Source of the DNA: Geosiphon pyriformis uo1
Lineage: Eukaryota > Fungi > Glomeromycota
Assembly: GCA_016748015.1 (NCBI GenBank)
Contig: JAAOMT010000664.1
Location: 1,487,892 to 1,551,891 of the forward strand
DNA length: 64,000 nt
Direction of reading: 5' to 3'
Below are positions 4,721-37,159 of the stretch, piece by piece. The notes beneath the pieces are model-generated. The model was not told where the DNA came from. It did no database searches and saw only the letters and a program-made list of their open reading frames with translations. Made by a program: the position numbers and the translations under genes. Every line of letters starts with the position of its first letter. Position 1 is the stretch's first letter.

Positions 4721-5289
4721 TTTGAGTTCAAACAGAAAGATGGCATTCAGGGATTTGTTCTTGGTGATGGTAGCTGGCAAAATGTTGCTGGTAAGTGTTG
4801 AGTATTGGTTGGTTTCCAGGTTATTGGGTTGAGTGTCTTCTGGGATAACCAGTAGACTTAAATAGTTCTGAAAATTCAGATGTTGAGCATATCCAGTGCC
4901 CAAATTCCATTGTCGAGATTTTGCTGGTTGTGTGAAAGAACTGGGGATTAGTTGGTGAACTACCATCAACAATCTCCAGCTTTGTTGGGTCAATCTTGGC
5001 CTTTGGATTCCATTTTAAGATAAGTTCTGTAGTGGTGTTTGAATTTGTTGGGGCTGATATATTACTTGAGGCTGTGGCTGATAAATGAGTTGTGGTTGCA
5101 GCTAATAAATTGCTGGTGTTATCAGTTGATAAATTGGCATTTGATATACTGGTGGTTAATAAGGTGGCTGCTGTGTCATAGGTAAGTAATTCTGATGATA
5201 TGGCTTTAAGTTTGATGGGTTATTTGGAATTAGAAACTAGCAATCAGGGTTTCAATATTGATTTCCTGATCATTGGTTATTTAAGTGAT

Positions 5290-7060: not shown

Positions 7061-7101
7061 TGGATGATTGTTGATGGTGCTGGTTTTCTGTAAGATTATA
7101 T

Positions 7102-7117
7102 CTCACAGGGAGCACCA
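7102..7117 (-). promoter_or_regulatory. Primer binding site of A1 (TGGTGCTCCCTGTGAG)
   Basis: TGG 2 nt after LTR end, complementary to a tRNA 3' end ...CTCACAGGGAGCA-CCA. This resembles elongator Met or Ile(UAU); the isotype is not resolved. Confidence 0.8.
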
Positions 7118-7119
7118 AA

Positions 7120-8036
7120 TGTTATAAGTGATTATTTGGGGTCTCAAATTAAATAACAAACCCATAACTTGGTGCTCAGTATCTACTCTGATGGCTAATA
7201 GTGGTAATATTGGTATGTTGTCTTTATTTGAAGGTTTTGATTGAAAGTCCTTTGTATAATGGACAGAAATTCAATGATGAAGTAGTTAGTTGGTGAGTGG
7301 TGTTCTCAATTTCTGTCTTCAGCTTGGTGGTCAGTTTATTCTGGCAGTTGTGTCTTTCTGGTAAGCTATTCATTAATATATATATAATTTTACCCTTATT
7401 TCTGGATTTTTTATCAGGCTATCTATAATGTCAATTACTCAGCACTTTAATTCTTAATTAGTTAGTATACAACAAATACAATCAAAAAAAAGAAAATAAA
7501 AGAAGAAAATAAAGAAATGAGCCAAGACAATATGCAAGTTAGGATCCGTCAATAGCCATGATCAAGAGCTATTGTTCTAGTGTAGTTAAGTATCAATTAC
7601 TATTAACATGAAATATTGATAATAGAGAGTGAGTTGAAATGGTGAATAATTATTTATTAATATTTGTGAATAGAAAGTTGCTTAGATAAAATCTAAACTG
7701 AGAGGTCTCTAATAAAAAGATTCTGCCTTTTCTACTTCTAACACTACTGCTATATATACATAATTGATGTTCTATAAGATTGCTTATATTTCCAAGCAAT
7801 GTGCTATGATTTCTTGAGCAATGTTCACATTGCTAAGTAATGTGCCCTAATTTTTTAACATTGCTCCACATTGCTGAGCAATATGCTGTGTTTTCTGTCA
7901 TTGCTCCATATTGTTGAGCAATGTGCCATAATTTCTGTTATTGCTCTATATTGCTGAACAATGTGTTCACATGTTACATACTATTCGCTTATTGGTCTAT
8001 TATTTCCCTATATTTGTTTTTTTTTTATGAGTAACA
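7120..8036 (-). repeat. 5' LTR of A1 (LTR type A, 917 bp)
   Basis: TGTTA...TAACA termini; reverse-complement match to 35254-36361. Confidence 0.93.
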
Positions 8037-16781: not shown

Positions 16782-17506
16782 GATTTTTTCTTGATGTTGT
16801 GATATAAGTCTTCTTTTTAATTCTAATTGTCTTTGTATGTTGTGTACTTCTTTTCAGAGGCTAATTTGAAATTTATTCATTGTCTGGGGTCTTCTCTAAG
16901 GCTATTCTTGCAATTATCTGATGTGTTTCTCTAATCTAGAAACATAGAATGTTAATGATCTTTTTGCGATTTCCCTAAGTATATAATAAAGCTTTTTCAA
17001 TTTAATTAATAACCACGTGAATAATCTTGATTAGAGATTATTCTTCCAAAGAGTTCAGAGATGGAATGATAGTTTCATTCACTAAAGAGAGTATGTGAAT
17101 TTTATTGTTAATCTCGTAATTGTGATGTTCATTCAATTTATTATTTTTTTATTAATTCTTTTTGAATAAAATTTTATTTAGATATTTATTGTTTTTAGTT
17201 GAAACTGTTCTATTCTTCATTATTAAAAACTATTATATATATATATAATTATTGTTTTACAAAATAATGTCTTGTAATACTCTATTTCTATTATTTCTAA
17301 ATAATACTTGTTGCTATTATGAAATAGTGTTTGCTGCTTTTGCACAATAGTGCTTACTGCTATTGCATGATAGTGTTTACTGCTATTGTAAAATAGTGCT
17401 TGCTGTTATTTGTAAATCATTTCTTTTTATAAATTGTTGCTGTGCTATTTCATGATTGGCTAATTTATATTATTTATAATTCCTATTAAATTTTTGAACT
17501 GTAACA
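16777..17506 (-). repeat. 3' LTR of B (type B), missing ~111 bp of U5
   Basis: Aligns to 33612-34366; adjacent PPT. Confidence 0.92.
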
Positions 17507-17509
17507 TTA

Positions 17510-17521
17510 TCCCCTCCTTTC
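17510..17521 (-). promoter_or_regulatory. Polypurine tract of B
   Basis: GAAAGGAGGGGA 3 nt upstream of the LTR TG. Confidence 0.85.
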
Positions 17522-17833
17522 AAGATTAAGCTCTGTCGAAATCAAAGTTAATTTTTTCATTGAATTCTAAGTTGCTATAGTAGTCTAATACTGTATTATT
17601 AACTTGTTGTTATAATTCTTGAAATTGTGAGTTGGTAAGTTGTCCAATACTGTTGGTTGTTATTATGTTTATGGTTGGATTCAATAATACTTTGTGACAA
17701 TTTTTCAAATGCTTTGAAAATTCCATAAACTGTTTTTTGAATTGAATGTACTGTTGGTTTTTCCAATAAAACTTTCTAATTGTTGGATTGTTGCTTTGTC
17801 AAATATTCTAATTAATAGATAGATTTATGATTT

Positions 17834-19100
17834 TTATGTGTGTCTCATTCTTAACAAACAATTAGCATTGGCATTTTTGGTACCTTCTTTGTATTTGATA
17901 ATATAATCATATAGTGCTAATATTTGTAACCATCTGGTATATTTTTTTTTTAGTACTTTTTTGTTATTTAATCAGATCAAACCTCTATGATCTGTGGTAA
18001 TATTAAAAGATTTGTACCAAAAATATGTGTCAAAGTAAATGCAACTCCAGACTACTGCTAAGCATTTCAGTCTGTGTGCTGCATAGTTTTGCTCTGCCAT
18101 ACTGAGACTTTTACTGATATAAACAATTACACATTCTCTTCCATTATCATCTTTTTGTGAAAGAATGGCTCCAAGTCCAGTTTCAGAGACATCTGTGGCC
18201 AAAATGAATTTTTTGTTGAAATCTGAATAGATCATTATTGGTGATTCAATGAGCTTTTGCCTAAGATACTTAAAAGCTTTTTGCTGTGTTTTAGTCCATT
18301 CAAATTTCACATTTTTGGATAGTAAATAATTAAAAAGTTTGGTAATGTTTGAAAAGTTTTCTACAAAGCAACAGTAGTAAGATACGAGTCCTAAAAAGCT
18401 TCTAACTTCTAAAACATTTTGAAGTACTGGAAAATTTTTCACTTTGTCTATTTTTGATAGATCTGGTTTTATTCCATCTTTTCCAACTATGTGTCCTAGA
18501 AATGCTAGCTCATTTTTTCCAAAGAAACATTTTTCTAAATTTAATTTAAGTCCAGCATGTCTTAATTTCTTAAAAACTTGTTGTAAATGTTGGAGATAAT
18601 TCGTGAATTTTGGCAAGAAAACATTTGTATCATCCAAGTAGACAACAACAGATTGCCACAGAATTCTGGAGTAAATTATGTTTATTAGTTTTTGGAATGT
18701 CGCAGGAGTATTTGTTAATCCAAATGGCATTACATTGAACTCATAATTGCCATTTTGTGTTGTGAATGCTGTTTTATGTCTGTCTTTTGGGTCCATTTCT
18801 ACTTGCCAATATTCACTGGTCAAGTCAAGTGTAGAAAACCATTTTGCTCCTCCAAAAATGTTGAAGATTTTGTCAATTAATGGTATTGGGTATGAATCTT
18901 TGGTTGTTTTGCTGTTTAGTTTGCGATAGTTGATGCAAAATCTAATTTTTCTGTTCTTTTTTCTTAATAAAACAACTGGTGAGAATCATAGGCTCATTGA
19001 TAGTTGAATTATTCTTTTTTCCAACATGCTTTGGACTTCTTCTCTGATAAAATTATGCTTCATTGGTGAGACATGGTAAGTGCATTGTTTTTCAGGTCTG
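17834..19100 (-). pseudogene. RT-RNase H of B
   Basis: KTAFTT, MPFGL, YLDD, ATD.S..GLGAIL, TDH; ends RMRHT*. Confidence 0.95.
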
Positions 19101-19669
19101 GCATCCCCAGTGGAAATTTGGTGTTGAACCAAGTTGGTTCTTCCAAATTCGCCATTTTATGAAAATATATTAGAGTATTTTAAAATTAATGCTTTTAATT
19201 GTCATTGTTGGTCCAGATTCATTGTTCCAATGTTTAATTTGGCCAATTCTTCTGGTGTAAATTGATAGCATTTCAACAGTTGTTGCCAATTTATTGAAGT
19301 GAGTTCACAGTAAAGAGCAATTTCTGGGAAATTTAGAATTTCTTGTGGTGTTGACACATTTTCTAGCTCCGTTCCAAGATATCCCATGATGGTGTTTACT
19401 GAAATGTATATGAGCTCTTCTGTAGTATTCATGATAGAAATTTTTATTCATTGTGTTTTGTCAGCTGAAATAAAAAGGTTAGTAAGTCCTATGGAAAACT
19501 GTTGGCAAGTTTCTGAGTGGGACTTAAATATTAGATTTATATCTTTTATTGTCTTTTTTATTTTAATTTCTGATTTTTTGTATGACATGAGCATGATTGA
19601 CTGCTCATTTCTAATTAATTCATTTTTTTCCTGGCATTTCAATAAAATTTGCTTTAATTCCTTTTCCTG

Positions 19670-20090
19670 TTGATCTAAAACCATAAATTCCTTTTATTGT
19701 TTGTGTCAATTTCTTTCGATTTTCCACTGGTACAAATTTTCCAACTTTTACTAATAATAGGAAAATTGCTTGTGCAATCTTCTCCTTAAATTCAATGATA
19801 TAAGATTTTTCTGAATTGTTCTGTAGCAAAACCATCAAATTTTCAGTGTAGCCAGAGTCAATTATTCCTCCTTGAATACTTATTCCTTTTTTTGTGAGAC
19901 TTGATCACGACACTATTTGAACCATTATTTCTGGCGGAATTTTAACCACTATTTTCAAATCGATTTTGGTAATACTTCTGAGTGGTAATGTTGTGGATTG
20001 GTCTTTCAGATAATGTAGATCGAATTTAGCATCAGTTGGATGGGCTCTTTTAAGTATTATCCCTAAGTGCCTGTTGTCAAAGTATTGGAT
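19670..20090 (-). pseudogene. dUTPase domain of B
   Basis: RAHPTDAKFDL, S(R)SSL, GGIIDSGY, KIAQ, GFRST. Confidence 0.88.
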
Positions 20091-21049
20091 GTTAATCTCT
20101 TGTTCTAGATTAGTATAGACTACAAATTTTTCTGACTCAGAACTGTCAAACGAGTCTTATTGATTTATTAATTGATTTTGGTACTGCTGATTCTCAATTT
20201 TTATTTTTCTTGCCAAGTCTCTTTCATATTAACACTCTTCACAGCACTAACTTTGGCATGGGATAAGACAGTCTTCGCAAAGATAAGTGTTGATCTGAGT
20301 GAGATACTGTTCTTGCTCTTGGCGAGTGGAACATAGCTGTTGGTAGTTTTCCTGGAATTTGTCTACTGGATTGAACATATTATAGTTGGCGACTTTATTA
20401 GCTATTTTGGCTGATATTTTTCAACATTGTATTTTTTTGGTGGTTTCTCCTCTTATTTTGGCCTGTGTGGTGTTGTATAACTTGTTCTCATCATATGAGT
20501 AATACTGCAGTCTTCTTAATGCTTTGTTGAACACTGCTTCAAATGGCATTCCTTTTTTTACTTAGTCACAGATGAGAATTGTGTATTAGTAAGTTGTGTT
20601 ACATGTTTTTCCTCTGCCTAGCATGTTAATCCAGTCACACCTTTTTGGCAATGATTTTCCACAAGTGAGACATGGTTCTTCATCCCATTTTCTATGTCTT
20701 TCTGGGTAACCATATTTTTTTTGTTATAATGGTTACAATAGTAGTGGGTGGGGTTTCTTGGGTCTTTATCCAGTGTGCTGCATGCAGTCATTGACAAGAG
20801 TTTCTTATTGCAAACTGAACATTCTAGTTTTGGTCTGCATTGCTGACAGTTTTTTTGTGGACTTGCCTGGTTCCATTTGGACTTTCTTTTGTTTCTCTAA
20901 GTTGGTATAACCAGTAGTCCTGTTCTTTGGTCATCAGCCCATGAAAACTGATAAGTTTTGATGGCTGGTAGGACTAGATTTTCTTTGAATTTGAAGGTAG
21001 GTCTTTGGTTGGTACTGGGTTTTTGGAAGTGGCTACATGTGACTGGAAT

Positions 21050-21460
21050 TCTGGCATGGTGACTATTATAGCTGATAAGAAGCTCTTAAGTAGTCCAATC
21101 TAATATGACATTGGCTTTTGTTAACCAGTTATTCCCTACTAATGCTTAATATTGTGTAGCATCTATTACTAATACTTTTGTAGATATTATTATGCCATTA
21201 ATTTCAAAAGGGAATAAGTTGATTTTGCCATGAGGCAGCTTGGTATTTTCATTGACTGTTATAATTTGGGATGTCACAGCGCAATCAACTTTAAAACCCA
21301 GTTGGTTTATTAGTTGAAGCATTACAATGCTTCTGGTGGATTCACTGTTTAAGATGAGTTTAATTGGTGTGTTGTTTATTTTTGTTTCTGTGTACATAGC
21401 AGTGATTGGGCATTTCTCATCCAATGCTGCTCCACTAAACATAGCCTCTTTTTTTTCTAA
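21050..21460 (-). pseudogene. Aspartic protease of B
   Basis: IKLILNSES, ALVGNNWL. Confidence 0.85.
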
Positions 21461-21942
21461 TTCAAAAGGAAAAATAGCTGTAAGGCTGCTATTTTCTATG
21501 ACAATGGCTGGTAATATTGTTTGGATCAAGTTTTGGCTATTGGTGATATTTTCAGTTCGAATTACATTACCATTAATATTTCCAAGATTTAAGTTTTCTA
21601 ATATATTAAGGTAAGTTGGCTGAAAATTTGGGTAGTTTGGGTAGTTTGCATTTGTTTGTTAATTAGGTCCTATGTGATTAGAATTTCTAGTAATAATTAT
21701 GTTTTGACTTAATACTGGCTGGCTTCGAAACTCTGGATGCCAGTTTGAGTTTGAAATTACTGGTCATTGCTAGTAAGTTCCTTGATTTTGGTATATAGTA
21801 GGGTATTGATGTGGTATTGGCATGTATTGATTTCTAAGCATTTGGGGTGGTGTGTAATAATTATTCTTGTGTGTCTCATGCATCATTTGCATTTGACATT
21901 AACTAATTAAATGTCTTATGCATTTGCAAAAATGGCAGGCAC

Positions 21943-22925
21943 TGTTACTGGAGGTTTTTGGTCTCTTTTCTTGAATGTTGTTGATGTTGATTTGCTGTGA
22001 ATTCACATTTCTAGGAAGTAGTTGAACCTCCAGTAACTGAATTTATCTTCAAATTATTTCTTATAATTTGAACTGCTGGGCTTATAAGTGGAATGGCCAA
22101 TTCCGTACCAGTTGCTTTGTGTAGTTACATTGTAGTAAACATCAACTCTTTTCCAGGAATTGCTCATCTGGAAGCTCACTAAAAATGTGTAGTTACTTTG
22201 CTGTGAAAGTCAACTCTTCTATAGAAATCTTGTCTATAGGCTATCCTAATGATTATAATAAGAAAATAAAAGAAAGAAAATAAAAAAAATGTAAAAGAAA
22301 TGGAATTCTGTTAAGAGAAACGTTTTCTATTTAGGCCTGGAGTTACTAACAGTTTATTGAAATTGGTAGCTAATCAATTTCAAAACTGTTTAGTGGGAAT
22401 TGGTTAATTTTAAAAGGAAAATAATTAAGAATTTGATTTTTTGAATTATTTGATATTTATTTCGTTTTTGTGTATAAAAGATGATTTTAATTGTTAAATC
22501 TAAAGTAAGATACATTTTCTCAAAGAGAGAAGCTCTTTTTTTATACAACTTGTTGTAACACTATTCTATGAACTTGAACTTTGCTCTTTTCTACAATTTC
22601 ACTGAACTAAAGATACATTTTGGCGAACTACAAGTTATTTCTGTGAACTATTAGATATTTTGGTAAACTATCAATTATTTTGGTAAATTTCTACAAATTT
22701 TGGCAAACTTTTGAATGTTACATATTTTGGGGTATTGCATGATTAATCATTGCAATTAGGTTACATCTGTGTTATGTACAAATTGGATTATTAATTAAAT
22801 GATAATTTCGGACATTTTGCTAATATAATAAGTAATAATTTGAAACAATAATATATGCTAATTAATGATAGGAATTATAAAGATAATTTCATGCTAAATA
22901 ATATCTCTAATTTCGTCTTGTAACA
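21943..22925 (-). repeat. 3' LTR of C
   Basis: TG...CA; PPT GAGGAGAAAG at 22929-22938. Confidence 0.95.
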
Positions 22926-23613
22926 TAACTTTCTCCTCAAAACTGAGCTCCATCGAAGTCCAAGTACTGTCTGTAATTTCCAGATAATAATCCAAAATTA
23001 TTGAAGAAATTTGGTCTGAAAATTGTTGAAATTTCAGTTCTGTGAGCTTTCCAATGTATTAAATCTTCAAAGGCTGTAAAATTGGGTTTTGTAGGACGTT
23101 TTCACAGGTGTAGAATAGGTCATAAAGTCTAAGAGCAGCTCTTAGTTTATAATGACTATTTGTAGGCCTAGCTGTTGTCTTGAATTCATTGTGGAGTTGT
23201 TTTCAAATAGCTTTTTTTGTGAGGTTTGCTGCTATAAGCTCCTGTTGTTGTTCGTGAAGTGTTTTTCCAATGTAAAAATATCTATATATTGGAGTATAGT
23301 TGTAGTTTTCTTCATTAAGACACAGTTGAAGTTTTTGTTGAATAGTAGTATTTAGTGGAATACTAATAAGAGTGAGCATTAAGTTTTCTCTTAAAGCAAG
23401 CTTTAAAAGTTCTGGCAGGTGAATTCCAGAATAACTTCTTGTGTTCTTCTTATACGGGTGATATTTTTGTGCATTTGGGGCTAAATTTGTAACTAATTCT
23501 GTTTGGGTATAATTAATGTGGTTTCTAGTAACAGTAATGGATAATTCGGGTATTGTTTTTAAAGCTAACATTAGTTTTTGGGATAATTGTTGAATGTTTT
23601 GAGGAATAGTCAT
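22894..23613 (-). pseudogene. ORF3 of C: ~239 aa protein of unknown function downstream of integrase
   Basis: Single frame with 2 premature stops; homologs at 58803-59510, 63114-63812, 34604-35239 and 17520-17820. Confidence 0.8.
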
Positions 23614-23756
23614 TATAAAAAATTTGAAAATAAAGGAAAATTATTTTTGGTGTATGGGTTTTTATGTTATTTTTGTTTTGTTTTTGTGAGATTATTTCTA
23701 AATTATAAGGAGATAACTATAATAATAAATTTAAATTAAGTGTTTAAGTTGGGAGA

Positions 23757-25121
23757 TTATTCAATGACAAATATTGGTTCTAAATTTTGGGAAATATCTT
23801 TGGGATTGATTAAAGGGGAATGTGTACCAATTTGTGGAATTAATGGTTCAGAATTGTTTTTGGAATTATAGTGTTTCAAACAATCTCCATATGCAACTTT
23901 TGCTAGGATTTTGTTATCAAGTCTTAGCTTGTATGATCTATTGCCTAGGACTTCATGGATAAAGAATGGTCCATCTCATTTATTTTCAAATTTTTCACTC
24001 TATTGTTTTTCAGCTTTAATTCTGTATAAGAGAACTTTGTTTCCAATTTTAAATCCATTGGTAACTGGAGGCAATTTGTTGTCATGCCATTCTTTTTGTT
24101 GAGCTTGGGAGTATTTAATATGGGTGGCTGCTATTCGTTGTTTTCCTTCCAATGTGCTAAGCAGAGTGTAGGCTCTTTGTTATAGTGTTTCCTGAAAGTT
24201 GTTTTTATTAATTGGTTGTACTGGGTATGTTTTCATTATGAAACTAATTGGTAACATTGCTGTTCTTCCATAAGTTAAATCAAATGGTGTGTGTTTTGTG
24301 ATATTTTGTTTTAGTGTTCTATATGCTAGTAACACTAATAGAATAAAGAGATCCCATTCTTGCTCAAAATTGGTTGAGACTTTGGCTAATGATTTACACA
24401 ATGTTTTGTTGAAATGTTCTACAAATCCATTTGTTTGTGGATGGTAAGGCAAAGATAATGGTCTTTTAATATTAAATCGTCCACAAATTTCCTGGATTAA
24501 ATTGTTCATGAAATGTGTTCCTTGATTAGATAAAAGTTCTATTGGGCATTTATGTCTACAAATAATGTCTTCATAAATGAAGTTTGCTACTGATTTCGCA
24601 TTTGCTTGTTGAATGGCTCTGGCTTCAGGCCATTTGGTAAGATAGTCTACAGCTACTGCAATATAATGGTTTCCTTGGTTTGTGATAGGGAGTGGTCTGA
24701 CTAAATCGATACCAACTCGGTCAAAAGGCTGTCCAACTTTGATTGGGTTTAAAAGTTCTGTAGGGTGAGTTTCTCCTCTTCTTTGACAACTATCACAAAA
24801 CTTAACATATTTATGAATGTCTTTTCTCATTTAAGGCCAAAAATAATATTCTAGTGTTCTTTGAGTGGTGCTGTTTTTTCTTAGGTGTGCTGATGAACGG
24901 TCTGAGTGCATGTTATATAAAATGGTTTTTTTTTCATGTTCTTGTATTAATCTGAGTGGATTGTCTAGGTTTCTGAAATTTTGATAATAAATCATGTTAT
25001 TGTGTAAGAAGTATTGTTTGGCTTGTTGTTGTAACCAATGTTTTTTATCTGAGGACCAATCTGTTGGGATTGTTAATGTCTCCAAATATTGTTTAAGATT
25101 GTTGTAGTTTTCGGGGTTCAT
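23757..25121 (-). pseudogene. Integrase of C, stand-alone ORF (~454 aa), GPF motif, no chromodomain
   Basis: Own ATG; H..SAH, CDSC, GIDLV, SNQG, VEHFN, DGPFFI. Confidence 0.93.
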
Positions 25122-25169
25122 TGTTTGTTGTTTTGTTGTTAATTCAAATAGGTGTTTTTTTTTTATGTT

Positions 25170-26420
25170 TTAATCTTGCCTCATTTTTAAGAGACAATTA
25201 ACATTGGTGTGGAGTTTTCCTGGTTTGTAATGTATAATGTATTAGTAGTTGGCTAAAAATTCTGTCCATCAGATTTGTTTGGCATTCAGCTGAGTGTTTT
25301 TGTTTTGAAGCCATTTGAGTCTAATATTATCAGTGATAATATCGAATTCTTTGGGTCTGAGGTAAAGGTTGAAGTGATGTAGAGCCCAGATTACTGCTGC
25401 AGTTTCTAATTCTATTGCAGGGTAGTTCTTTTTAGCTAGTTTCAATGTTCTGCTAGCATAAGCAATTACTCGCTCATTTTCATTGTCATCTAACTATGAT
25501 AGGATGGCACCAAAGGCAGTATAAGAGGCATCTGTTGCTAACTGAAATCAGTTGCTAAAATCTGGGTAGGCAAGAATTGGAGCTGTGGTTAGTTTTTCTT
25601 TGAGAATTTCAAATGCATTTTGGTGTTCAGTAGTCTATTTGTATTTGACGTTTTTGGTGATAAGCTGGTTGAGAGGTTTTGCAATTTCTGAGAATCCTTT
25701 AATAAACTTCTAATAGTAGGAGGCTAACCCTATGAATTTTCTTAGTTCTGTAGTGTTTTGAGGAGTTTTGAAGTTTTTGACAGTACTGATTTTTCTAGGG
25801 TCCAGTTTGATTCCATCTTTACTAACAATGTGATTAAAAAAGACCAAACTCGTTTTTCCAAAGTAGCATTTTTCGATGTTTAGTTTCAATTCTGCTTTCC
25901 GTAATTGTTGAAAGACTTCTCACAGGTGTTTTAAGTGTAATTCAAAAGATGGTGAATAAACATTAGTATTATCGAGATAAACAACTACTGATTTCCAAAG
26001 GAGGTCTTTGTAAACAACATCCATGAGTCTTTGGAATGTTGTTGGTGCATTGCATAATCTGAAAGACATTACATTGAACTCGTAATTTTTTTTTTGAGTA
26101 GTGAATACTGTTTTGGGGCAATCTTTGGGATCCATGGCAACTTGCTAGTATTCACTTTCTAAATCTAATGTCAAAAAGTATTTGGACTTTCCAAGAGCAT
26201 CTAGCATGTCATCAATTTGGGAAAGAGGGTAGGCATCTCCAATGGTGATGCTATTGAGTTGTTGATAATCAACACAAAATTGTATCTTTCCATTTTTTTT
26301 TTAACTAAGACCACAGGTGAAGCCCATGGACTCATTGATAGTTGAATAAGCCCATTGTTGAGCATCCGTTGTATTTCTTTGTGGATAAATTGGTGACTTT
26401 CTGGAGCAACTCGGTAGGCT
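25170..26420 (-). pseudogene. RT-RNase H of C
   Basis: FCVDY, YLDN, ATDAS, ELET.AVIWAL; ends MRQD*. Confidence 0.93.
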
Positions 26421-26964
26421 TGCTGTCATCTTGGTTTGGCATCTCCTGTGTAGATTTGATGTTGAACCAAATCAGTTCTTTCTAAGTTATTGTTGTTTTT
26501 GGCAAAGATATTGGCAAATTCTGTAATTAGCTCTTTAAGCTGGTTTTGTTGTTGTGGTTCAAGTTGTCCCATGTTGATTCGAAATAGTTTTTCCATGACA
26601 ACATGGTAGTTTTCAGAGCTGAGGTTTGGGTTGATTTTTGGTAGTGAATATCTAATAATTCCAGAGAAATTGGAGACTGTTTGGGGTAATTCTTGTTGAA
26701 AAATATTACTGTGAATGATTCCAATTTCTAAGTTATTTAATAAAACTATGGGATAATTGTTAGGATTGTAAAAAGTAACTTGGACTTTCTTTGTTCCTTC
26801 TGAAATATAAATGTTTAGAATCGAGATATTATGTTCCAAGCAGATTCATTTATTGAACTCAAAAATTTGTTGGGTGGTTATTGGCTTTAAGCAGGTATAG
26901 ATTTCGGGGTGTTCTCCAAAAGGTAAAATAGTGATTAATTGGAGAAGGTGTAAAATCTGGTGAG

Positions 26965-27410
26965 ACTCATTCTGTTTATTGAGAGCTATGTTTACTGGAA
27001 CTGTGAATTGTCCAGTTGAACCAAAACCTTGGGTTCTTTTTTCACTTTTTCCCAATTGTTCTCTTTGATTGACTAATTGTAAACCCAAAATGTTGATTAA
27101 GGGTAAATAAATGGCTTGGACAATTTTCTCGGCATGTTTAATCTTAAATGGCTTGTTAGTTTTATTTTGGAGTATTACTGTTATATTACCAGTATATCTA
27201 GCATCAATTATTTCTCCTCTGATATTGATTCCTTTGCTTGCTAGAGAGGACTGGGAGGCAATTTGAACCATTGCTCCTGGTGGGATTTTGAGGGCAATTT
27301 TGAGGTTGATTTTTGTGAGAGATTTGGATTTAAGAACAAGAATATCCTTGTTTGAATATCTTAGGTCATATCCAGCATTAATTTCATGTGCTTTTTCAGG
27401 TTTTATTCTT
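26965..27410 (-). pseudogene. dUTPase domain of C
   Basis: AGYDL, ASQSSLA, IIDARY, KIVQ, RTQGFGSTG. Confidence 0.92.
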
Positions 27411-28399
27411 TGTCTGTTGTTGTTGAAGTATTTGAGTTGTAAGACAGGGTGATTTTCAATAAGATAGATGGGTATTGTTTCAATTTCTTCTGTTGCTTCA
27501 GGTTCTCCAAATTCAATTTTGTTTTTATTGTTTTCATTGGGCAGGGGAATGCTAAGAGCATAGTATTCAGGACACCATTGCTCATCGCAAAACATTATGT
27601 ATTTTTCACACAATTTAATGTTCATTTGCTTTAGCCATTGAGCTTGAGCTTCTTTAGTTGGGTAGGTGTAACTTGTGATTTGATGGTACACTTCTACTTT
27701 ATCTTCATAATTGTATCCAGCTAATTCCAAAATATATTCAATATATTCAGCTTCTTTCATTTAATGAACATCTTTTTTGGTAGCTCCATTAACCAATGCC
27801 ATTGCTAGGTTGAAAATAATTTCAGCATCATGGGGGTAGTGATAGAGTTTGTTGAGAGCACTGTTGTATGCTGCATTAAAGGATGTTCCTCTTTTGACTT
27901 TTTTTGAAATTGATAAAGCATATTGGCAGGTTTAATTGCAGACTCCTCCTCTCATTGCTACATCAATCCAATTGCATTCTTCTGGTAGCGTATCTCCACA
28001 AGTCAAACAAGGGGTGTTGTCCTATTTTCCACTTTTTTTTATTAGATAGCCCTATTGTTCTCTGTGACAAGCTTTGCAGTAATAACAAATATGATTTTCA
28101 TATTCTTCTTTAGGTAAAATGCAGGCTCCCATTGAGAAGAGTTTCTTGTGGCAGTCCTTGCATTTGAGTGGAATGTAAGGGTGTTGTTTTTTTGGTTGTG
28201 GTTTAGAATATGGGATGTTCTATTCAGGGATTTCTGGTTCCTCTGGATATAATTTTGTTGCAAAATACGTTTGCTCAGTTTCTTCAGCCCAGTTAGATGT
28301 TGATTCAAGAACCATAAATGTTTCGATTACAGGCTTTTCTTCTTCCTCTTCAAATTCGAAGACAGGAGCTTTCTCTGATTGTTTGTTGAATGTACCACA

Positions 28400-28800
28400 A
28401 GTAGCAGGTACTTGGGCATGTTGTCCTTGATAGAAGAGTTGTAATTCTTGGGTTTCCCAGTCTAATTTTGCATTGGCTTTTTGGAGCCAATCATTTTCAA
28501 CAAGAGTTTAATACTGGGGCGCGTTCATTATAAGAACTTTGACTGGAATGGTGATTCCATCAAGAGTGAATGGAAAATTGTCAATTTCTTCTATGGGAGT
28601 CTTTTTTATGCCATCAGCAGTAACAATTACTGTCTGAGCTGGTCAGTCAACATTTTTTTTAACTGTTGCATCAACTGGTAGGTGATAATGCTTCCGGTGG
28701 ATCCACTGTCTAGAATCAAGCAAATTGCCTTTCCTTCAACTTCTGCTTCAGTGTACATAGCAGTGATTGCTTTTTGTTTGTTGGCGGCTGCATTGCTGAG
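28400..28800 (-). pseudogene. Aspartic protease of C
   Basis: LILDSGSTGS catalytic motif. Confidence 0.9.
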
Positions 28801-29299
28801 CAGGAATAGTGACTCATTTGCTTCGAACTCAAAAAAGAATATATCTGAAAGGTTGGCGTTTTCAGCAATTCTGGCTGGTGGAATTGTGATAGGAGTATAG
28901 GAAAGATTTTGTTGTCATGCTGTAGCTCTACCTTCCAAAAGTGCAGTATGGTAAAAATCCTGTTCTTCTGGCATTGTTAAATAACTGGGTTGAGTGTAAT
29001 AGTGATTGGGTCTTGGTTGAGCGGAATTTCAGGGAACCAATTGGTTGTTCAAACTGATTCTATTGTTGTTTACTTGGTATCAGTTTTGTGGTGTGAATTG
29101 ATTTTGTGTAATCAATCTTTGAGCAGGTACTTGATAATGTTGTGTGGGTGGTTGTTGGTATTGCTGTTGGATTGGCTGTGGGTGGGCTGATAATAGTTAT
29201 TTTGGTATTGGGGTCTTAGTAGATAATAAGCTGGTGGTGGTGGTTGATAATAAGATTGCTGTAGTGGAAGATAACGTTAATTACTCCTATTTTGTTGGT

Positions 29300-30771
29300 C
29301 TCATTGTAGCTTTCTGCAATTTCTTTTCCAGTGGCCAGGAATTCTACAGTAATGGCAATTCTGAGACTGGTTATTAGAGGGTGATGTGAAGTTATTTTGA
29401 TTTTGTCTTTGGAGTAGTTGATATCTTTGGGGTTGCTGTTGTTGTTGGTTGGTGAAATAGTTTTCAACTTTCTTTGTGAGTTGGTCGATTTTCTCCTCAG
29501 CTGCTAAGCTGGTTTCTCCAATGGCCAAGTTTACAAGTTTTGTGCAATTGGTCTTTTCTATGGCCATTTCGTATCTCTTTGCATGCTGTATGGCAGAGTT
29601 TAAATCTTTTGGGACATGTGGGTGAACCTTTTTAATCAGTTTATCCTTTAGACCAGCAATAAATTGATCCAAGATTTGAACATCAGAATAATAATCATTA
29701 GTTTCAAGTTGGCAAATTTGTCTGAGAAGTTTGTTAAATTTCCCAATATAAGTCATAACAGATTCGGAGAGTTCTTGTTTAATATTGTGAAAATGATTTC
29801 GAAGAGTAATGGAGGTGTTGTTATTAGTGAATTGTTCTAAAAAGGCAGTTTTGAAAGCTGTCTAGTCATTAAAAGGGGTGGTCAAGTTTTCAAATTATTC
29901 ACCTGCTGTTTCTTTGAGAAAGTAGGGAATTATTCTTAACATTCTGGCAGCATTCTATTCATTTGCATCTCCAGCTTTAGTAACTTGGTCGAGCCATTCT
30001 TGGGAACTGGTCTCAATATCTTCTCCATTAAATTTGAAAATTTTTGCAATATAAGCTGTTATTTTGTTTTCTTCCTCATTATTTATTAATTACCTTTCTT
30101 CTTTGGATTCTACTTCTTCTTTAATGGTTTCAGAAACGTTTTTTTTGTTGGCTAATGTTTCAGAGTATTTGCTTGTGTTTTCTGCTAAATAGTCAAGAAG
30201 ATTGGTACTAGTCTGAAGGGTTTTTTGTTGTCTGGTGGGATTTCTGGGTAATGTATAATCTTCTAGTCTTGAAAATCGATTTAAAGATAAATTAGGAGTT
30301 TCTGCTTGTGCAAGTGAAGCTGGAAAAGGTGTAATAGTGAGTGGGAGTTTTGAACTGGTTCCTTGTTTAGGTGTTTGTAAGTGTTTGGCGGTTGTTTTTG
30401 GTAGTATTGGAGTATTTAGGGTGGTTTTTGAGTATTGCTTCAATTTTTGTTTGCCTTTGTTGCTTGTTTTTGTCTCTGATTCAAAGTCAAAAGAGTATTT
30501 AAACTGTACTGGGTAAGTAGGTAGCAAGTGTTTTACTGTTCAGGTCTTCTGTTTCCAATTGTGAATAGTGCACTAAATTATTTTAGAGGTTGCTTCTAAC
30601 TTCTGAAATGTTGTAGTTTCCAAAAAGATAATTGTTAATGCAGTTTTCAATATATTGGTATACTGATTTCTTGACAACTTCAATTCCGTCTGAAATGTTG
30701 AATTTTTGCTTGCAGTGTGTGTAAATTGACTGGTAATACTCTAGAGTTGCTGTGTTTGGTGTGGTTGCCAC
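29300..30771 (-). pseudogene. gag of C
   Basis: KFNGED...EWLD, ILDQFIAGL, CHYCRIPGHWKRNC knuckle. Confidence 0.88.
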
Positions 30772-30798
30772 TTTGAATTTGTTGTTACTGTGTTATTT

Positions 30799-30814
30799 CC
30801 ATAAGAGAGCACCA
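30799..30814 (-). promoter_or_regulatory. PBS of C (TGGTGCTCTCTTATGG)
   Basis: TGG 2 nt downstream of the 5' LTR; tRNA isotype not assigned. Confidence 0.8.
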
Positions 30815-30816
30815 AA

Positions 30817-31799
30817 TGTTACCAGAGGTTTTTGGTCTCTTTTCTTAAATGTTGTTGATGTTGATTTGCTGTGAATTCACGTTTCCAGGAAGTAGTTGAA
30901 CCTCCAGTAACTGAATTTATCTTCAAATTATTTCTTATAATTTGAACTGCTGGGCTTATAAGTGGAATGGCCAATTCCATGCCAGTTGCTTTGTGTAGTT
31001 ACGTTGTAGTAAACGTTAACTCTTTTCCAGGAATTACTCATCTGGAAGCTTACTAAAAATATGTAGTTACTTTGTTGTGAAAATCAACTTTTCTACAGGA
31101 ATCTTGTCTGTAGGCTACCCTAATGATTATAATAAGAAAATAAAAGAAAGAAAATAAAAGAAATGTAAAAGAAATAGAATTCTGTTAAGAAAAACATTTT
31201 CTATTTAGGCCTGGAGTCATTAACAGTTTATTGAAATTGGTAGCTAATCAATTTCAAAACTGTTTAGTAGGAATTGGTTAATTTCAAAAGGGAAATAATT
31301 AAGGATTTAATTTTTCAAATTATTTGATATTTATTTTGTTTTTGTATGTAAAGAATGATTCTAATTGTTAAATCTGAAGTAAGATACATTTTCTCAAAGA
31401 GAGAAGCTCTTCTTTTATACAATTTGTCGTAACACTATTCTATAAACTTGAACTTTGCTCTTTTCTACAATTTTGCTGAACTAAAGATATATTTCAGCGA
31501 ACTACAAGTTATTTCTGCAAACTATTAGATATTTCAGTGGACTATCAATTATTTTGGTGAATTTCTACAAATTTTGGCAAACTTTTGAATGTTACATATT
31601 TTGGGGTATTGCATGATTAATCATTGCAATTAGGTTATATCTGTGTTATGTACAAATTGGGTTATTAATTAAATGATAATTTCGGACATTTTGCTAATAT
31701 AATAAGTAATAATTTGTAATAATAATATATGCTAATTAATAATAGAAATTATAAAAATAATTTCATGTTAAATAATATCTCTAATTTTGTCTGGTAACA
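30817..31799 (-). repeat. 5' LTR of C
   Basis: Same length as the 3' LTR and colinear with it. Confidence 0.95.
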
Positions 31800-33420
31800 G
31801 CGTGCATTTTTGTTTTGAAGTCCTGGCACAATGAGCGATTATTTTGGCTGCCATTGAATTCCTGGTTGCATCTTTGTGGTGTTTGGTATGTATTATTTCT
31901 TCCTGGGTCCAAGATGAGGTAACTTTCTATTTTTTTAGAAAGTTTTTTCTCTAATTGTGTTACTCTCTTTTCTAACATTTCTGTCTTGTTTTCCTCTATT
32001 ACCATATTAAGTATTTAACTATAATTAGCTTCTTTTTCAGCCAATTCAAGGGCTCTGGCAAGCATAACAGCTTCTGGTAATGAATCAGGGTGAGCAGGAC
32101 ATACTTTTCCTAAAATGCTGCTTTTTAATCTTCTAATAAATTGATTTAAAACCTGAAAATCAGTATAGTATCCTTGCTTAATCACTTCAATCTGACAGCA
32201 AATTCAATTGAATCGAGCAAAATATTGGGTAACAGTTTTATCTGTACTTTGCTTGATTGTATTGAATTTATTCTGCAATTGGATTATGGCATTTGGGTCA
32301 CTAAAATACTCCAGGAGTGCATTTTTAAATTTGGCAAAGCTCATGGGTTTTGTTTCTAGACTTTGATACTATGAGTTGGCTGTGCCTTTTAGAAAGAAAG
32401 ATAATGTTTGAATTGCTCTTTGGTCACTCCAGTTATTTGCCTGGATGTCTTTTTGCACTTCTCTGAGCCACATGTGCACATCCATTTTTTCTTTTTCTTC
32501 TGAGAAATCTGTTAGTCTTGTGATGTATAGTGTGGCCATTTTGTCGCCATTTTCTGCTGGTGGGCTTATTGGTCTAAGAGAAAGTGAGATGATATTTCCT
32601 TGAGCGTTCCTAAAGGTGGCTTCTCTTATATCTGGTTTTTTCTCTTGATCACAAGTTTCTTGGTTTCTGGACTGGCTGCTTGTTCCAGTGACTGGTCTTG
32701 TGATTGTTTTTTTGCTGGTCTCTTTTTTGGATTCCAATTCAGACTCCTCTTCACAGTTTTCAAATCCTGTTCCGAATTTTGATTGAAAAAGAGAGTTTTA
32801 GAATAGCAATGAATATTCTTCTGTAATTGGTATGTCTCCTCAGTTATATTGTTTAATTTTATCAGTATAACTAAGAGCTCTTGGCATTTGTGGAGTTGAT
32901 GTTAATGATGATGCAGCTCCTAATAGAATTTGTATCTTATTTTCTGGTGAAAAATAGTATGATTTATTTTCTAGTGAATAAATACGTTGTTTCTTTATTG
33001 ATTGAGTGACAGTTTTCTTTGGTGTTTGAGCAGGTGTTCCTAGTTTTTGCTGGTTACTTTTTTGATTAGTTTCTAAATTTTTTTTGGTTTTGTTGGCACA
33101 TTCTCTAGTGTTTCTTGTGGATATTAAAAAATTTTCATTGGTGTATTGCTTAATTTCTCAATAGATTTTGACAATAGTTGCAGCTATTATTGCTACTTTC
33201 TTTGTAGTGTATTGTGATAATTCTCTATACAATCCAAGTTTTGTGTCGTGTAGTTCTTCTTCCTTTCCTATATAATAATTTATTCTGACATTGATATAAT
33301 AAATAAGGGCAGATTCTACTAGACAACACCTTTCTGTTAATCTAAGATCACTTTGATTTTGTGTGTAAATAGCATGGCAGAATTCAAGGACAGTAAGATT
33401 AGGGGTTTTTGTTACCACTT
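31800..33420 (-). pseudogene. gag of B, N-terminal part (continues at 21942 after element C)
   Basis: HMWLREVQKDIQANNW; rejoined junction reads MHACHFCKCIRHLIS*C (CCHC). Confidence 0.85.
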
Positions 33421-33481
33421 TTGTTTCTTCTTTTTTAGCAATGAATTATTGCTAATTATTATTTTCTTTTTGATTTTCTTT

Positions 33482-33498
33482 CCTCATAGGGTTCACCA
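33482..33498 (-). promoter_or_regulatory. PBS of B (TGGTGAACCCTATGAGG)
   Basis: TGG 2 nt downstream of the 5' LTR. Confidence 0.8.
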
Positions 33499-33500
33499 AA

Positions 33501-34366
33501 TGTTATGGGATGGTTTTCTTGATATATTTTAATTGTTAATCTCTTATTTTAATTGCAATCAGTCTCTCGTGAGTTTTTTTATTCTATGTGTTGGATATTA
33601 ATGATAATGTATTGAAGGTTTTTTCTTGATGTTGTGATGTAAGTCTTCTCTTTAATTCTAATTGTCTTTGTATGTTGTATATTTTTTCCCAGAGACTAAT
33701 CTGAAATCTACTCACTGTTTGGGGTCTTCTTTGAGGCTATTCTTGCAATTGCCTAATGTGTTTCTCTAATCTAGAAACACAGAATGTTAATGGCCTTTTT
33801 GCAATTTTCCTAAGTATATAATAAAGCTTTTTTAATTTAATTAGTAACCACGTGAATAATTTTGATCAGGAATTATTCTTCCAAAGGGTTCAGAGATGGA
33901 ATGATAGTTTCATTCGCTAGAAAAGATATGTGAATTCTATTGTTAATCTCATAATTGTAATATTTATTCAATTTATTATTTTTTTATTAATTCTTTTTGA
34001 AAAAAATTTTATTTAGATATTTGTTGTTTCTAGTTAAAGCTGTTCTATTTTTCATTATTAAAAATTATTGTATATATATATATAATTATTGTTTTACAAA
34101 ATAATGTCTTGTAATACTCTATTTTTATTATTTCTAAATAATGCTTGCTGTTATTGTAAAATAGTGCTTGCTGCTTTTGCACGATAATGCTTGCTATTAT
34201 TGTAAAATAGTGCTTGCTGCTATTGCATAATAGTGTTTACTGCTATTGTAAAATAGTGCTTGCTGTTATTTGTAAATCATTTCTTTTTATTAATTGTTGC
34301 TGTGCTATTTCATAATTGGTTAATTTATATTATTTATAATTCCTATTAAATTCTTAAACTGTAACA
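33501..34366 (-). repeat. 5' LTR of B (866 bp)
   Basis: TG...CA; matches 16777-17506 and 54802-55640. Confidence 0.95.
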
Positions 34367-34603: not shown

Positions 34604-35239
34604 ATGGAAATACCAGATCATATTTACACCATAGCTCAGCAATTATTCTAGGCATTAAATTAACAACCATTAGACATGGAAATTATCATTAACAACCAAA
34701 CAATTTGCTATTCAAACACCAAAAAAAAGACAAAGAATACACCATATCAGTAAATACCAAAGAGTGATAAAAACTGGTCAAATAACATAATAGAAAAAGT
34801 AAGGAACACTTTTGGGAAAATACTTATTAGGGCATTAACAGAAAAACTCACAAAAGAGAATTGAAAGCAATAGACAGAACAACTTCCAATATAATACTGT
34901 TACTACTAGTTAGGTCGAAAGTTGAATATTCAGGAGTTTTATATTGACAAATCCAAAAAAGTATTTAACCAAAACATAATACAGCAAATTGAAGAATTTA
35001 TTGGAAAAAAAACAAACTTAATACTATATGTGAGAACAATTTATCGACTGCACAACATATTTCAGAACTATCCAGAAATACTGTTACACTCTAACATAGA
35101 AACTATAACTATTAATCAATAGGGAAGAATAAATAATGTACAAATAGAAGACATGAAAAATAAAGTCAAACAAACAATATTAGAAAAAGAAGTATTAGAG
35201 CTAATTCAAAATGAAGATTTCGATAGAGCTCAATATTAA
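34604..35239 (+). pseudogene. ORF3 of A2, divergent homolog of ORF3 of C
   Basis: MEIPDHIYTIAQQLF*AL aligns to MTIPQNIQQLSQKLMLAL; YY*LGRKL to YFYIGKTL; RLHNIF to RLYDLF. Confidence 0.65.
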
Positions 35240-35253
35240 AAAGGAGGAGATAA

Positions 35254-36361
35254 TGTTACTCATAAAAAGAAAACAGATATAGAGAAATAGTAGACCAATA
35301 AGCAAATAGTATATAGCACATGAGCACATTGCTCAGCAATGTAGAGCAATAACAGAAATTATGACACATTGCTTAGCAATGTGGAGCGATATTAGAAAAT
35401 TAGGGCACATTACTTAGCAATATGAGTATTGCTCAAGAAATCATAGCACATTGCTTGGGAATATGAGCAATCTCGTAGAACATCAATTATATATATATAG
35501 CAGTAGTGTTAGAAGTAGAAAAAGCAGAATTCTTCTATTAGAGACCTCTTAGTTTAAATTTCATCTAAGCAACTTTCTATTCACAAATATTAATAAATAA
35601 TTATTCACTATTTCAACCCACTCTCTACTATCAACACTTCATGTTAATAGTAATTAATACTTAACCATACTAGATCAATAGCTCTTAATTACAGTTATTG
35701 ATGGATTCTAACTTGTGTATTGTCTTGACTTATTTCTTTATTTTCTTCTTTTATTTTCTTTTTTTTGATTGTATTTGTTGTATACTAACTGATTAAAGAT
35801 TAAAGCACTGAGTAATTAATGTTACAGATAGCCTGGTAAAAGACCCAGAAATAAGGATAAAATTATATATATATTAACAGATAGCTTATCAAAAAGACAC
35901 GACTGCTAAAATAAACTGGCCACCAAGCTGAAGACAGAAATTGGGAACACCACTCACCAACCAACTACTTCATCATTGAATCTCTGTCTATTATACAAAG
36001 GACACCAAGGAAATTAAGAAAAAAACAAGGGACAATGAATTATATTGAATACACTGCTTTTATTTTCTTTATACCATTACATCATGCTAAAATTAGAACA
36101 AAGAGAATATTCATATTCTCTGCTAAATTAAACTTAAAAATCCTTCTAACCTTAACTCCCCTTCTAAACAATAATATTAGCACAGAATTACCGAGGATAT
36201 AAAACTTGCGAATTAAGTTTTTTATTCTCCGCCCTCTTAATCAAAACCTTCAGATAAAGACAACATACCAATATTACCACCATCAGCCATCAGAGTAGAT
36301 ACTGAGCACCAAGTTACAGATATGTTATTTGATTTGAGACCCCAAATAATCACTTGTAACA
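35254..36361 (+). repeat. 3' LTR of A2 (type A, 1108 bp)
   Basis: TGTTA...TAACA; matches 7120-8036 apart from a ~230 bp indel. Confidence 0.93.
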
Positions 36362-37159
36362 TCATATACAAAAATTTGAATTATGTAAATTAAATATATA
36401 AATACCAAAAAAACAAGAAAAAAAAGCTTAAAACACTTTTAATATAGATTTTTTAAACAAAATTCTGAAACTTTTACAACAATTATTCGAAATAATTTAA
36501 CAATTCACAATATTAATAAAAATTACAATTGATAAAACAAAGATATAATATAAAAATACAAACAAAAAAAAGGCAAATAAGAATTTAACTAAAACTGAAT
36601 ATTCTTAATTTTATGAAAGATCAAAGAAAAAAAAATATATGTGTATTCAAATATTTGAAAAAATTAAAAAAGCTTTAAACAGCTTAGCTATAGAACTTAA
36701 TACTAAAAAAAAGATCCTTAAAGTCTTTAAAATATAAAAAAAACTTTTATTAACAAATTGTTTTTTTAAAATTAGTAAAAAACTAAACTTATAAACATTA
36801 TATATTGATAATAACAAATAAATATTCAATAAAAAAGCTCTTAAACAATTAGAAAAATTTGATAAAAAAAACAATTTAATGTTATATTACAAAACAATAT
36901 ACCAATTATATTTAGCATTTAAATATTGTTTAATTATACTATTAAACAATTTATTAAAGACTATTATAGTTAATAACATAAAACAAGTAATAAATTTTTA
37001 ATTTAAAAAACTACAAAAAATAATATTTAACACAATAATTAAACACTATATCAAAAAAATAATTTTTAAAAATACATATGATTTTACAAAAGCTTAATTT
37101 TAAAAAAAAATTATTATTCAAGTAAAAAAAACCAACCTAAAATTATTAAAAAATGTAAT

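Follow-up and report, generated by a model that had tools for sequence, protein, structure and literature searches.

A Ty3/Gypsy-type lineage in Geosiphon pyriformis with its integrase outside the Pol polyprotein

Elements at the locus

The window analysed here, a stretch of 64,000 nucleotides from Geosiphon pyriformis uo1 (contig JAAOMT010000664.1, forward-strand positions 1,487,892 to 1,551,891), carries several related LTR retroelements, designated A to E (Table 1). Element C, inserted in the gag of element B, has the order LTR-gag-protease (PR)-Cys domain-dUTPase-reverse transcriptase (RT)-RNase H (RH)-stop, followed by an integrase (IN) with its own ATG, then ORF3 and the second LTR. Pfam matches along C follow the order gag, dUTPase, RT, RH, IN. 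The gag region holds a capsid (29646-29864; Pfam Retrotrans_gag, E 4.5e-8) and, by motif, a CCHC knuckle from 29357; the protease is identified by its LDSGS motif in C and by Pfam protease matches at the same region in A and B. The integrase has the HHCC residues, the catalytic core and a GPF motif (23958-23972), with Pfam matches to H2C2 and rve, and its profile finds Ty3 Gag-Pol as the best PDB match (E 1.5e-49).

Table 1. Features of the window and their coordinates
Feature	Position	Strand	Remarks
Element C	21943-31799	-	
5' LTR of C	30817..31799	-	983 nt, TG..CA
Primer-binding site (PBS) of C	30797..30814	-	begins TGG, 2 nt past LTR
gag region of C	29200..30700	-	decayed; limits approximate
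Aspartic protease of C	28400..28760	-	LDSGS 28696-28713; broken by frame change near 28640
Cys-rich domain of C	27555..28162	-	14 Cys; between PR and dUTPase
Trimeric-type dUTPase of C	27011..27400	-	Pfam PF00692, E 1.1e-18
RT and RNase H of C	25170..26580	-	Pfam RVT_1, RT_RNaseH; terminal stop TAA 25170-25172
Spacer of C, RH stop to IN start	25122..25169	-	48 nt, A-rich, non-coding
Stand-alone integrase ORF of C	23756..25121	-	454 codons; own ATG at 25121
ORF3 of C	22894..23613	-	239 codons; crosses PPT, ends ~30 nt into 3' LTR
Polypurine tract (PPT) of C	22929..22938	-	within ORF3, 3 nt before 3' LTR
3' LTR of C	21943..22925	-	983 nt, TG..CA
Right target-site copy of C	21939..21942	-	GTGC; left copy ACGC 31800-31803
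Element A	1..8036	-	5' LTR, gag-PR-Cys-dUTPase-RT-RH in single frame with many stops
Element B, interrupted by C	16668..34366	-	gag-PR-Cys-dUTPase-RT-RH-stop, ORF3 remnant, LTRs
ORF3 homologue, PPT, A-type 3' LTR	34604..36362	+	
Element D	57925..62169	-	partial RT-RH, 58-nt spacer, IN, ORF3, 3' LTR
Element E	62170..64000	-	ORF3 and 3' LTR of C's family; adjoins RT of D

Element C is a dead copy. It contains 35 in-frame stops across four frame segments, IN and ORF3, as well as three frame changes (one in RT, near 26340), and its RT catalytic motif reads YLDN (25968-25979). The two LTRs are 93.3% identical, with transitions accounting for 64 of the 66 differences, and the flanking target site would be a decayed 4-bp GCGC duplication.

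The other elements preserve parts of the same plan. In A, the RH stop ends at 842 and the IN ATG lies at 811, and the window edge cuts the element inside IN; since an ORF3 homologue stands beside an A-type 3' LTR elsewhere in the window, the A family is linked to an ORF3 as well. Element B lacks IN, its RH stop joining the ORF3 remnant. In D, from which gag to dUTPase are absent, the RH stop ends at 61104 and the expected IN start reads ATA. Three LTR types occur, together with three PBS sequences that all begin TTTGGTG. RT-RH identity among A, B and C/D is 50-54%, but C shares 88% DNA identity with E and 69% RT-RH identity with D, which makes C, D and E one group. The first-pass annotation, which described A, B, C and D/E as clearly diverged copies sharing one layout that is complete in C, was right on the LTR types, on the divergence of A, B and the C group and on the layout of C; the RH stop recurs in A to D, but all modules occur together only in C, and that copy is dead.

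The lineage is a variant of Ty3/Gypsy (Metaviridae) with a separate integrase. It has TG..CA LTRs, a PBS and PPT, the order PR-RT-RH-IN, an RVT_1-type RT, a Ty3-like capsid and an IN with a GPY/F motif. The 4-6 bp target-site duplication of the group is seen as an exact CTGT at a B-type solo LTR (near 54804-55640) and as the ACGC/GTGC pair of C. The single-Pol layout, which is typical of Ty3/Gypsy and is not treated here as defining, is absent, IN lying outside the Pol polyprotein.

A separate integrase in the window and in relatives

A stop follows RNase H in A, B, C and D, each time within a similar (R/I/M)R(Q/H)x-stop motif. Among the 120 listed of 917 IN homologues, which include Rhizophagus irregularis and R. 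clarus proteins, the start lies 67-72 residues before the first His in 103 and exactly 71 residues before it, as in C, in 76; additionally, IN clusters contain many members of a single length, e.g. 418 or 424 aa. This protein search was confined to 141-797 residues, so that fused forms could not show up in it. Metagenome loci with both RH and IN, 47 in all, do bear on fusion: IN is fused in none of the 16 close loci (identity to P0171 of 45% or more in the IN core) and in 17 of the 31 loci more distant from P0171. In a tree computed under LG+G4 with no mixture model, with 22 of the 47 loci left out and no named reference elements included, 11 split loci and four window rows fall on one side of a branch (97/99) and 14 fused loci on the other. 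Two loci, L015 and L024, are intact, split and complete between terminal repeats; scans of viral contigs found no close relative. A control on copy variation was mixed: the upstream stop at 25244 varies among contigs (53% of depth), the upstream stop at 25269-25271 has no listed variant, depth is low at the RH stop, and the genomic contigs show a depth trough with loose ends from 25170. The split of IN from RT-RH is very probably genuine, with a stop behind RNase H that did not arise by decay.

At the junction itself, the spacer in A is 30 nt, and none of the window spacers in A, C and D overlaps the stop; the lengths in A and C are divisible by three, and the spacer of D is out of phase. Across 17 junctions in relatives, spacer length varies between -11 and +727 nt and every phase is represented (phase 0 in four); four junctions overlap or abut (TAATG in L015), nine have spacers of 30-110 nt and four have spacers of 163-727 nt. 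The stop codons vary between TAA, TAG and TGA. Relatives that are otherwise stop-free are split, and their spacers cannot be aligned. A purine stands at -3 in 21 of 25 IN starts; in nine of the 25, the 60 nt leading up to the ATG contain no YAG acceptor. In IN, ORF3, the Cys domain and the dUTPase, differences are most frequent at third codon positions.

In eight loci, whose integrases are 52-69% identical, the IN ATG lies just downstream of a 40-nt hairpin. In the hairpin alignment 96% of cells pair and 16 cells carry a compensatory change, a level reached by 0 of 500 shuffles, with the structure derived from the same, related sequences on which covariation was scored. At this position the model also matches L033 (E 9e-11) and L008 (E 0.0025). 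The hairpin is absent from the window and confined to one sub-branch, where L086 lacks it, and no Rfam family matches it. Matches to the hairpin pattern in viral contigs were taken as likely chance.

Cys domain, dUTPase and ORF3

The Cys domain, in which several CxxC pairs flank a helical-looking middle, is common to C, A and Geosiphon proteins among P0001-P0016 and is likely to bind zinc. It has no Pfam family above cutoff and no PDB match; a cytochrome c7 assignment scored below the Pfam cutoff, and matches to antibody entries in PDB were weak (E 0.01 or worse). The dUTPase shares its reading frame with the Cys domain and the N-terminus of RT, and among its 71 PDB matches none is clearly closest, retroviral, eukaryotic and viral entries being tied. 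A reading of the dUTPase-RT linker as a degenerate second dUTPase was rejected (hhalign E 0.12, within shuffles).

ORF3 has 197 protein matches, and it lies downstream of IN in 10 of 13 close relatives. Five ORF3 proteins show no hydrophobic segment (best 19-residue hydropathy 1.0-1.3) and have 1-2 Cys, and ORF3 is predicted to be a soluble helical protein, not an env. It has neither a Pfam family nor a fusogen match. For its model (mean pLDDT 66), the best structural match has Z 5.0 and rmsd 2.7 over 63 aligned residues; Foldseek gave no match at E 0.001 or better in the PDB and viral libraries, and ESM Atlas, searched beside these, gave only sub-0.9 leads.

The proposal of an old, diversified lineage is supported: a separate IN and a conserved ORF3 are found together, and L015 and L024 supply intact copies elsewhere. 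Its five-module combination does not hold as a feature of the lineage; the Cys domain and dUTPase are found in none of eight relatives spanning PR to RT and in none of the 113 loci searched, only in Geosiphon. Nor is the combination new in every part: our literature search, outside which the Repbase and GyDB entries lie, found no description of a separate-IN layout, but dUTPases between PR and RT (in fungal, rotifer and planarian elements) and non-env ORF3s in other gypsy elements are already published in the reports we drew on.

How could the integrase be made?

If integrase is a cistron of its own, how is it translated? We give about an even chance to the full reading that C is a dead Ty3/Gypsy-type copy whose separate IN was made by termination-reinitiation on the same RNA; given a genuine split, reinitiation by itself seems slightly better than even. 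Both judgements come from DNA sequence. The full-length RNA would yield Gag-PR-Cys-dUTPase-RT-RH as one chain, as the single frame in A suggests, and PR would cut this chain; ribosomes would terminate at the RH stop and restart across the short spacer, giving IN in small amounts. Because Pol would not carry it in, IN would need to bind Gag, RT or the RNA to reach the particle. The dUTPase would prevent uracil from entering the cDNA, ORF3 may help in trans as a soluble protein, and the Cys domain may have been acquired in the Geosiphon branch as a zinc-binding module. Stop-start reinitiation has precedents, as far as the sections consulted describe them, in RNA viruses and the non-LTR element SART1 (PMC10275272) and in the fungal virus CHV1 (PMC2699510). 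Reinitiation past a very long ORF normally requires helper signals, according to the same account (PMC10275272); the window lacks the hairpin of the sub-branch and its spacers do not overlap the stop, all of which counts against reinitiation.

The main rival, which we hold to be rather unlikely, accepts the split and derives IN (and ORF3) from a subgenomic RNA, by splicing or an internal promoter. Such a separate transcript fits the four longest spacers better, the IN start context is good, and ORF3s of LTR elements typically come from spliced messages (PMC5408684, in the part consulted); the four junctions at which stop and start overlap or abut argue against it, as do the nine starts with no nearby YAG, although an acceptor could lie further upstream. 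Internal ribosome entry, in which a structured spacer RNA would recruit ribosomes whether or not the upstream ORF is translated, would make sense of the covarying hairpin and its two additional matches. We consider it very unlikely, as the hairpin belongs to one sub-branch, is missing even there in L086, owes its structure to the related sequences that were scored, and could equally aid reinitiation, packaging or transcription. It is highly improbable that the RH stop is mutational decay of an active ancestor with an ordinary fused Pol: C does carry many stops, and the A and C spacers are multiples of three, but the stop sits at one position in A to D despite their divergence, the D spacer breaks the phase, relatives free of other stops are split by spacers that do not align, many members of IN clusters are equal in length, and the intact, split L015 and L024 largely refute it. 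A shade more improbable still is an only apparent split, in which readthrough or frameshifting joins IN to RT-RH; the in-phase spacers of A, C and the four phase-0 relatives would allow it, and the three phases, the wide range of spacer lengths, the varied stop codons and the conserved position of the IN Met speak against it.

Beyond reinitiation in C, we offer a broader proposal that we ourselves think unlikely: a polycistronic LTR clade centred on arbuscular-mycorrhizal-type fungi, with IN outside the Pol polyprotein, might restart IN from its own AUG with the aid of RNA structure and ORF3 in trans (like caulimovirus TAV), or might use ORF3 to bring IN into the particle, and the free IN cistron could be an intermediate toward Ginger1-like DNA transposases.

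Implications

On the accepted view, the integrase of LTR retroelements reaches the particle by being made as part of Pol. A widespread clade in which IN is its own gene needs other means of IN translation and packaging, so IN probably relies on a production and packaging route that the literature searched does not describe for such elements. We are encouraged that L015 and L024, being intact, make the question of IN expression testable. There is also a consequence for annotation. Such elements are abundant: LTR sequences make up 41.2% of the G. pyriformis genome (PMC11952901, in the part consulted), all 120 listed ORF3 matches are annotated as hypothetical host genes, and in Rhizophagus pieces of such elements are annotated as stand-alone integrases or transposases; these fungi may therefore be credited with too many genes and DNA transposons.

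Comparison with known systems

The elements share with yeast Ty3 and canonical Metaviridae the TG..CA LTRs, PBS, PPT, capsid, CCHC knuckle, PR-RT-RH-IN order and GPF motif. In canonical Ty3/Gypsy, however, IN is encoded within Pol (PMC12440569, as excerpted), whereas here it has an ORF to itself, and the non-env ORF3 downstream of it extends across the PPT into the LTR. Troyka, characterized in the same excerpt by CG..CG termini, a 3-bp target-site duplication and no GPY/F (PMC12440569), is ruled out by the TG..CA ends and GPF. Lokiretroviruses proved to be a mistaken precedent for a separate IN, their pol encoding IN (PMC7947760, in the portion consulted).

A dUTPase between PR and RT is described, in the published accounts used here, for PosPlaTy3-5 (Postia), for Phanerochaete and Tuber elements, for bdelloid Juno, Vesta and TelKA and for planarian Burro; Juno has an extra zinc knuckle there too, and rotifer elements have varied ORF3s. 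Those accounts mention no separate IN, and the 14-Cys domain has no match. The fungal dUTPase elements are termed chromoviruses there, whereas the elements here have no visible chromodomain, Pfam finding none in C or D or among the domains of the 120 listed IN homologues.

With errantiviruses and complex retroviruses, the lineage shares a third ORF after IN and, with some retroviruses, a dUTPase. However, ORF3 has no hydrophobic segment and no fusogen match and is thus not the membrane-anchored fusion glycoprotein of an env-bearing element; the likeness to complex retroviruses drawn at first was overstated and finds no support. SART1, CHV1 and calicivirus, as the excerpts describe them, likewise start a second ORF from an AUG of its own that coincides with, or lies close to, the stop of the ORF before it, to which the TAATG of L015 corresponds, but they are unrelated, and here the product is an LTR integrase and the spacers are mostly tens of bases. 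Ginger1 DNA transposons also have a free-standing integrase, a Gypsy-like ORF of ~400 aa with an N-terminal extension, H2C2, DDE and GPY/F (PMC2836005). Compared by the features described in the excerpt, Ginger1 is bounded by terminal inverted repeats, carries C-terminal protease domains and lacks an RT, whereas C has direct LTRs and an RT.

A separately encoded integrase

The DNA context of relatives is the strongest test of whether the integrase (IN) split seen in the Ty3/Gypsy-type elements of the window is genuine, i.e. whether reverse transcriptase (RT) and RNase H (RH) end in a stop and IN has its own start, or whether RT-RH-IN form one fused frame. RH and IN are both present in 47 of 84 loci examined; no fusion occurs in the 16 whose IN core shares 45% identity or more with P0171, and the remaining 31 comprise 17 fused, one cleanly split and 13 broken or decayed loci. 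Loci added afterwards fit this pattern, with a split in L086 and L090 and a fusion in the distant L088. In an unrooted RT-RH-IN tree (built from 11 split and 14 fused loci plus 4 window rows, with 22 short or stop-containing loci excluded), all split rows lie on one side of a branch with support 97/99, with element B entered as split although it has no IN, and the window copies cluster together (100/99). The first-pass annotation had proposed looking elsewhere for intact copies, and these exist: L015 and L024 are whole split elements between terminal repeats.

Within the window, the RNase H stop falls at one common motif in elements A, B, C and D, with spacers to IN of 30 nt in A, 48 nt in C and 58 nt in D. 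In genomic contigs aligned over the C junction, no variant is listed for the stop, where depth is low; 13 loose ends begin from 25170, depth has a trough in the spacer, and a control with upstream stops is mixed, one stop varying and another having no listed variant. Of 917 IN homologues 120 are listed, those with named organisms being from Rhizophagus; in 103 of the 120, IN starts 67–72 residues ahead of the first His, and in 76 at exactly C's distance. Only this start position is informative, because the search had length limits and gene callers begin at Met.

Architecture of the window copies

Most of the window is AT-rich and CpG-depleted. The LTRs of element C are 93.3% identical, with transitions making up 64 of 66 differences, and the copy is dead, carrying 35 stops and three frame changes; the latter are likely decay, because A keeps gag through RNase H in a single frame. 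One shared layout, complete in C, had been claimed at first pass: all modules are indeed present in C, but no other window copy has all of them. B is without IN, D without anything upstream of RT, and E consists of ORF3 (the third reading frame, 3' of IN) and an LTR, 88% identical to C. A is cut off by the window edge; elsewhere in the window an ORF3 homologue precedes an A-type LTR.

Features of element C and of related loci
Feature	Position	Strand	Remarks
Element C	21943-31799	minus	bounded by two 983-nt LTRs; sits inside gag of element B
Module order of C, 5' to 3'	21943-31799	minus	primer-binding site, gag, protease (PR), 14-Cys region, dUTPase, RT, RNase H
C, stop after RNase H	25170-25172	minus	TAA
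C, spacer from RNase H stop to IN start		minus	48 nt, A-rich
C, IN	ATG at 25121	minus	454 codons
C, gap from IN to ORF3		minus	142 nt
C, ORF3		minus	239 codons; crosses the polypurine tract (PPT), terminates within 3' LTR
Cys-rich module regions	L016:1-1400; L009:3500-4441; L024:4950-6705; L015:4150-4250		
Hairpin loci	L009:4463-4502; L011; L012; L021; L027; L028; L032; L085		
Two more hairpins	L033:16-62; L008:21-68		found via the model

Several smaller features accompany these copies. In B (17506-17834), hardly any sequence separates the RNase H stop from mid-ORF3, a junction for which a deletion and a spliced copy are both possible. A further ORF3 homologue lies just past an A-type LTR, where the DNA is very AT-rich and decayed (36444-37127, plus strand). 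By eye, a signature of about 30 nt precedes the 3' LTR at 22926-22950 (a GAGCTCA-like motif, a T-run plus PPT, 2–4 nt, then TG) and recurs at the equivalent positions of A-type, B, L005, L009, L011, L012, L015 and L019.

The Cys domain and dUTPase

Both modules are found in A, B, C and Geosiphon proteins, and in both the third codon position is the one that differs most between A and C, the pattern expected of once-functional coding sequence. As far as tested, they are a feature of the Geosiphon branch, since their joint profile found no match in the 84 loci plus 29 further ones, including eight split relatives spanning PR to RT; the protein search covered 926–2947 residues. That absence speaks against the initial view of the full module combination as a lineage feature. 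Split-clade elements have other Cys-rich modules, placed before gag, after RNase H, or between PR and RT.

ORF3

What is ORF3? Pfam has no family for it, no membrane segment was found, and the predicted model has a helical core (residues ~80–210, pLDDT 70–90) for which fold comparison gave no convincing match. Its profile drew 36 matches from 1.84 billion representatives, and the remote ones looked up are Geosiphon or unnamed metagenome proteins. An ORF3-related domain lies 3' of IN in 10 of the 13 close loci that have 600 nt or more of downstream sequence, versus none of 30 more distant ones. Four positives were seeds picked by eye, and the seed profile added seven; correspondence with the split is imperfect, because the 30 include L031, L034 and L039, whose IN has its own Met. 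The held-out L086 matches the seed profile at E 1e-26.

Sequence comparison gives moderate support to homology of Geosiphon and metagenome ORF3s: hhalign returns E 7.5e-5 and probability 62%, a metagenome-only profile scores 8.8–15.8 bits on eight Geosiphon proteins (best of 200 shuffles, 6.0), and on the window it ranks the four minus-strand ORF3 sites top, with weak scores. The complete element L015 has an additional 284-codon coiled-coil-like ORF between IN and ORF3 (L015:7404-8258).

How integrase could be translated

We infer the expression route of IN from its junctions, where starts were picked by aligning sequences with the N-terminus of IN. Across 17 junctions the spacers range from -11 to +727 nt (overlapping or abutting the stop in four cases, 30–110 nt long in nine and longer in four), and phases 0/1/2 occur 4/5/8 times; such variable spacers and the use of all three phases are evidence against readthrough or one programmed frameshift. 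We favor stop-restart translation, by which IN would be translated downstream of the RNase H stop; the main rival is that IN is made from a subgenomic RNA. A purine occupies position -3 in 21 of 25 IN starts (p 0.003 if the background is taken as 56%). According to PMC10275272, stop-restart translation is known in RNA viruses and SART1, usually with a helper RNA structure, and in caulimovirus a viral protein permits it. Just 5' of the IN ATG, eight loci of one sub-branch have a 40-nt hairpin with compensatory changes, which matches no Rfam family and is absent from the window.

Carriers and neighboring DNA

All 16 matches to the Cys region of A are from Geosiphon pyriformis, as are all 120 listed of 197 matches to ORF3 of C, with identity up to 88% over nearly full length; the host is thus probably this fungus or one closely related to it. 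The fungal link of the metagenome relatives consists of Geosiphon/Rhizophagus names and one match to an assembly of Ca. Glomeribacter gigasporarum, an endobacterium of Gigaspora. Close relatives of these integrases (L085, L086, L087, L090) fall in prokaryotic genome bins, likely as eukaryotic contamination.

Other coding sequences adjoin related loci: two deoxynucleoside kinase ORFs (PF01712; L044:9155-10066 and 10150-10971) directly 3' of a fused-Pol gypsy element, and an Mrr-like restriction endonuclease ORF (L020:509-1234) immediately 5' of a stand-alone IN. In the window, a CpG-rich island amid CpG-depleted repeats (40000-50600) presumably contains, judged by eye, a copper-fist-like transcription factor and a sirtuin-like gene, and another repeat family, LINE-like by eye, occupies 8134-10346, 12179-13787 and 14170-16700 (plus strand), one copy being heavily AT-decayed.

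Relation to published elements

In our literature search we met no LTR retrotransposon that encodes IN separately; such elements may be present in Repbase, in GyDB or in the papers on the Geosiphon genome. This lineage is a real new variant within Ty3/Gypsy. A dUTPase between PR and RT appears in published work, as do non-env ORF3s; the novelty at the clade level is the stand-alone integrase together with a conserved non-env ORF3, to which the Geosiphon branch adds the Cys domain and dUTPase.
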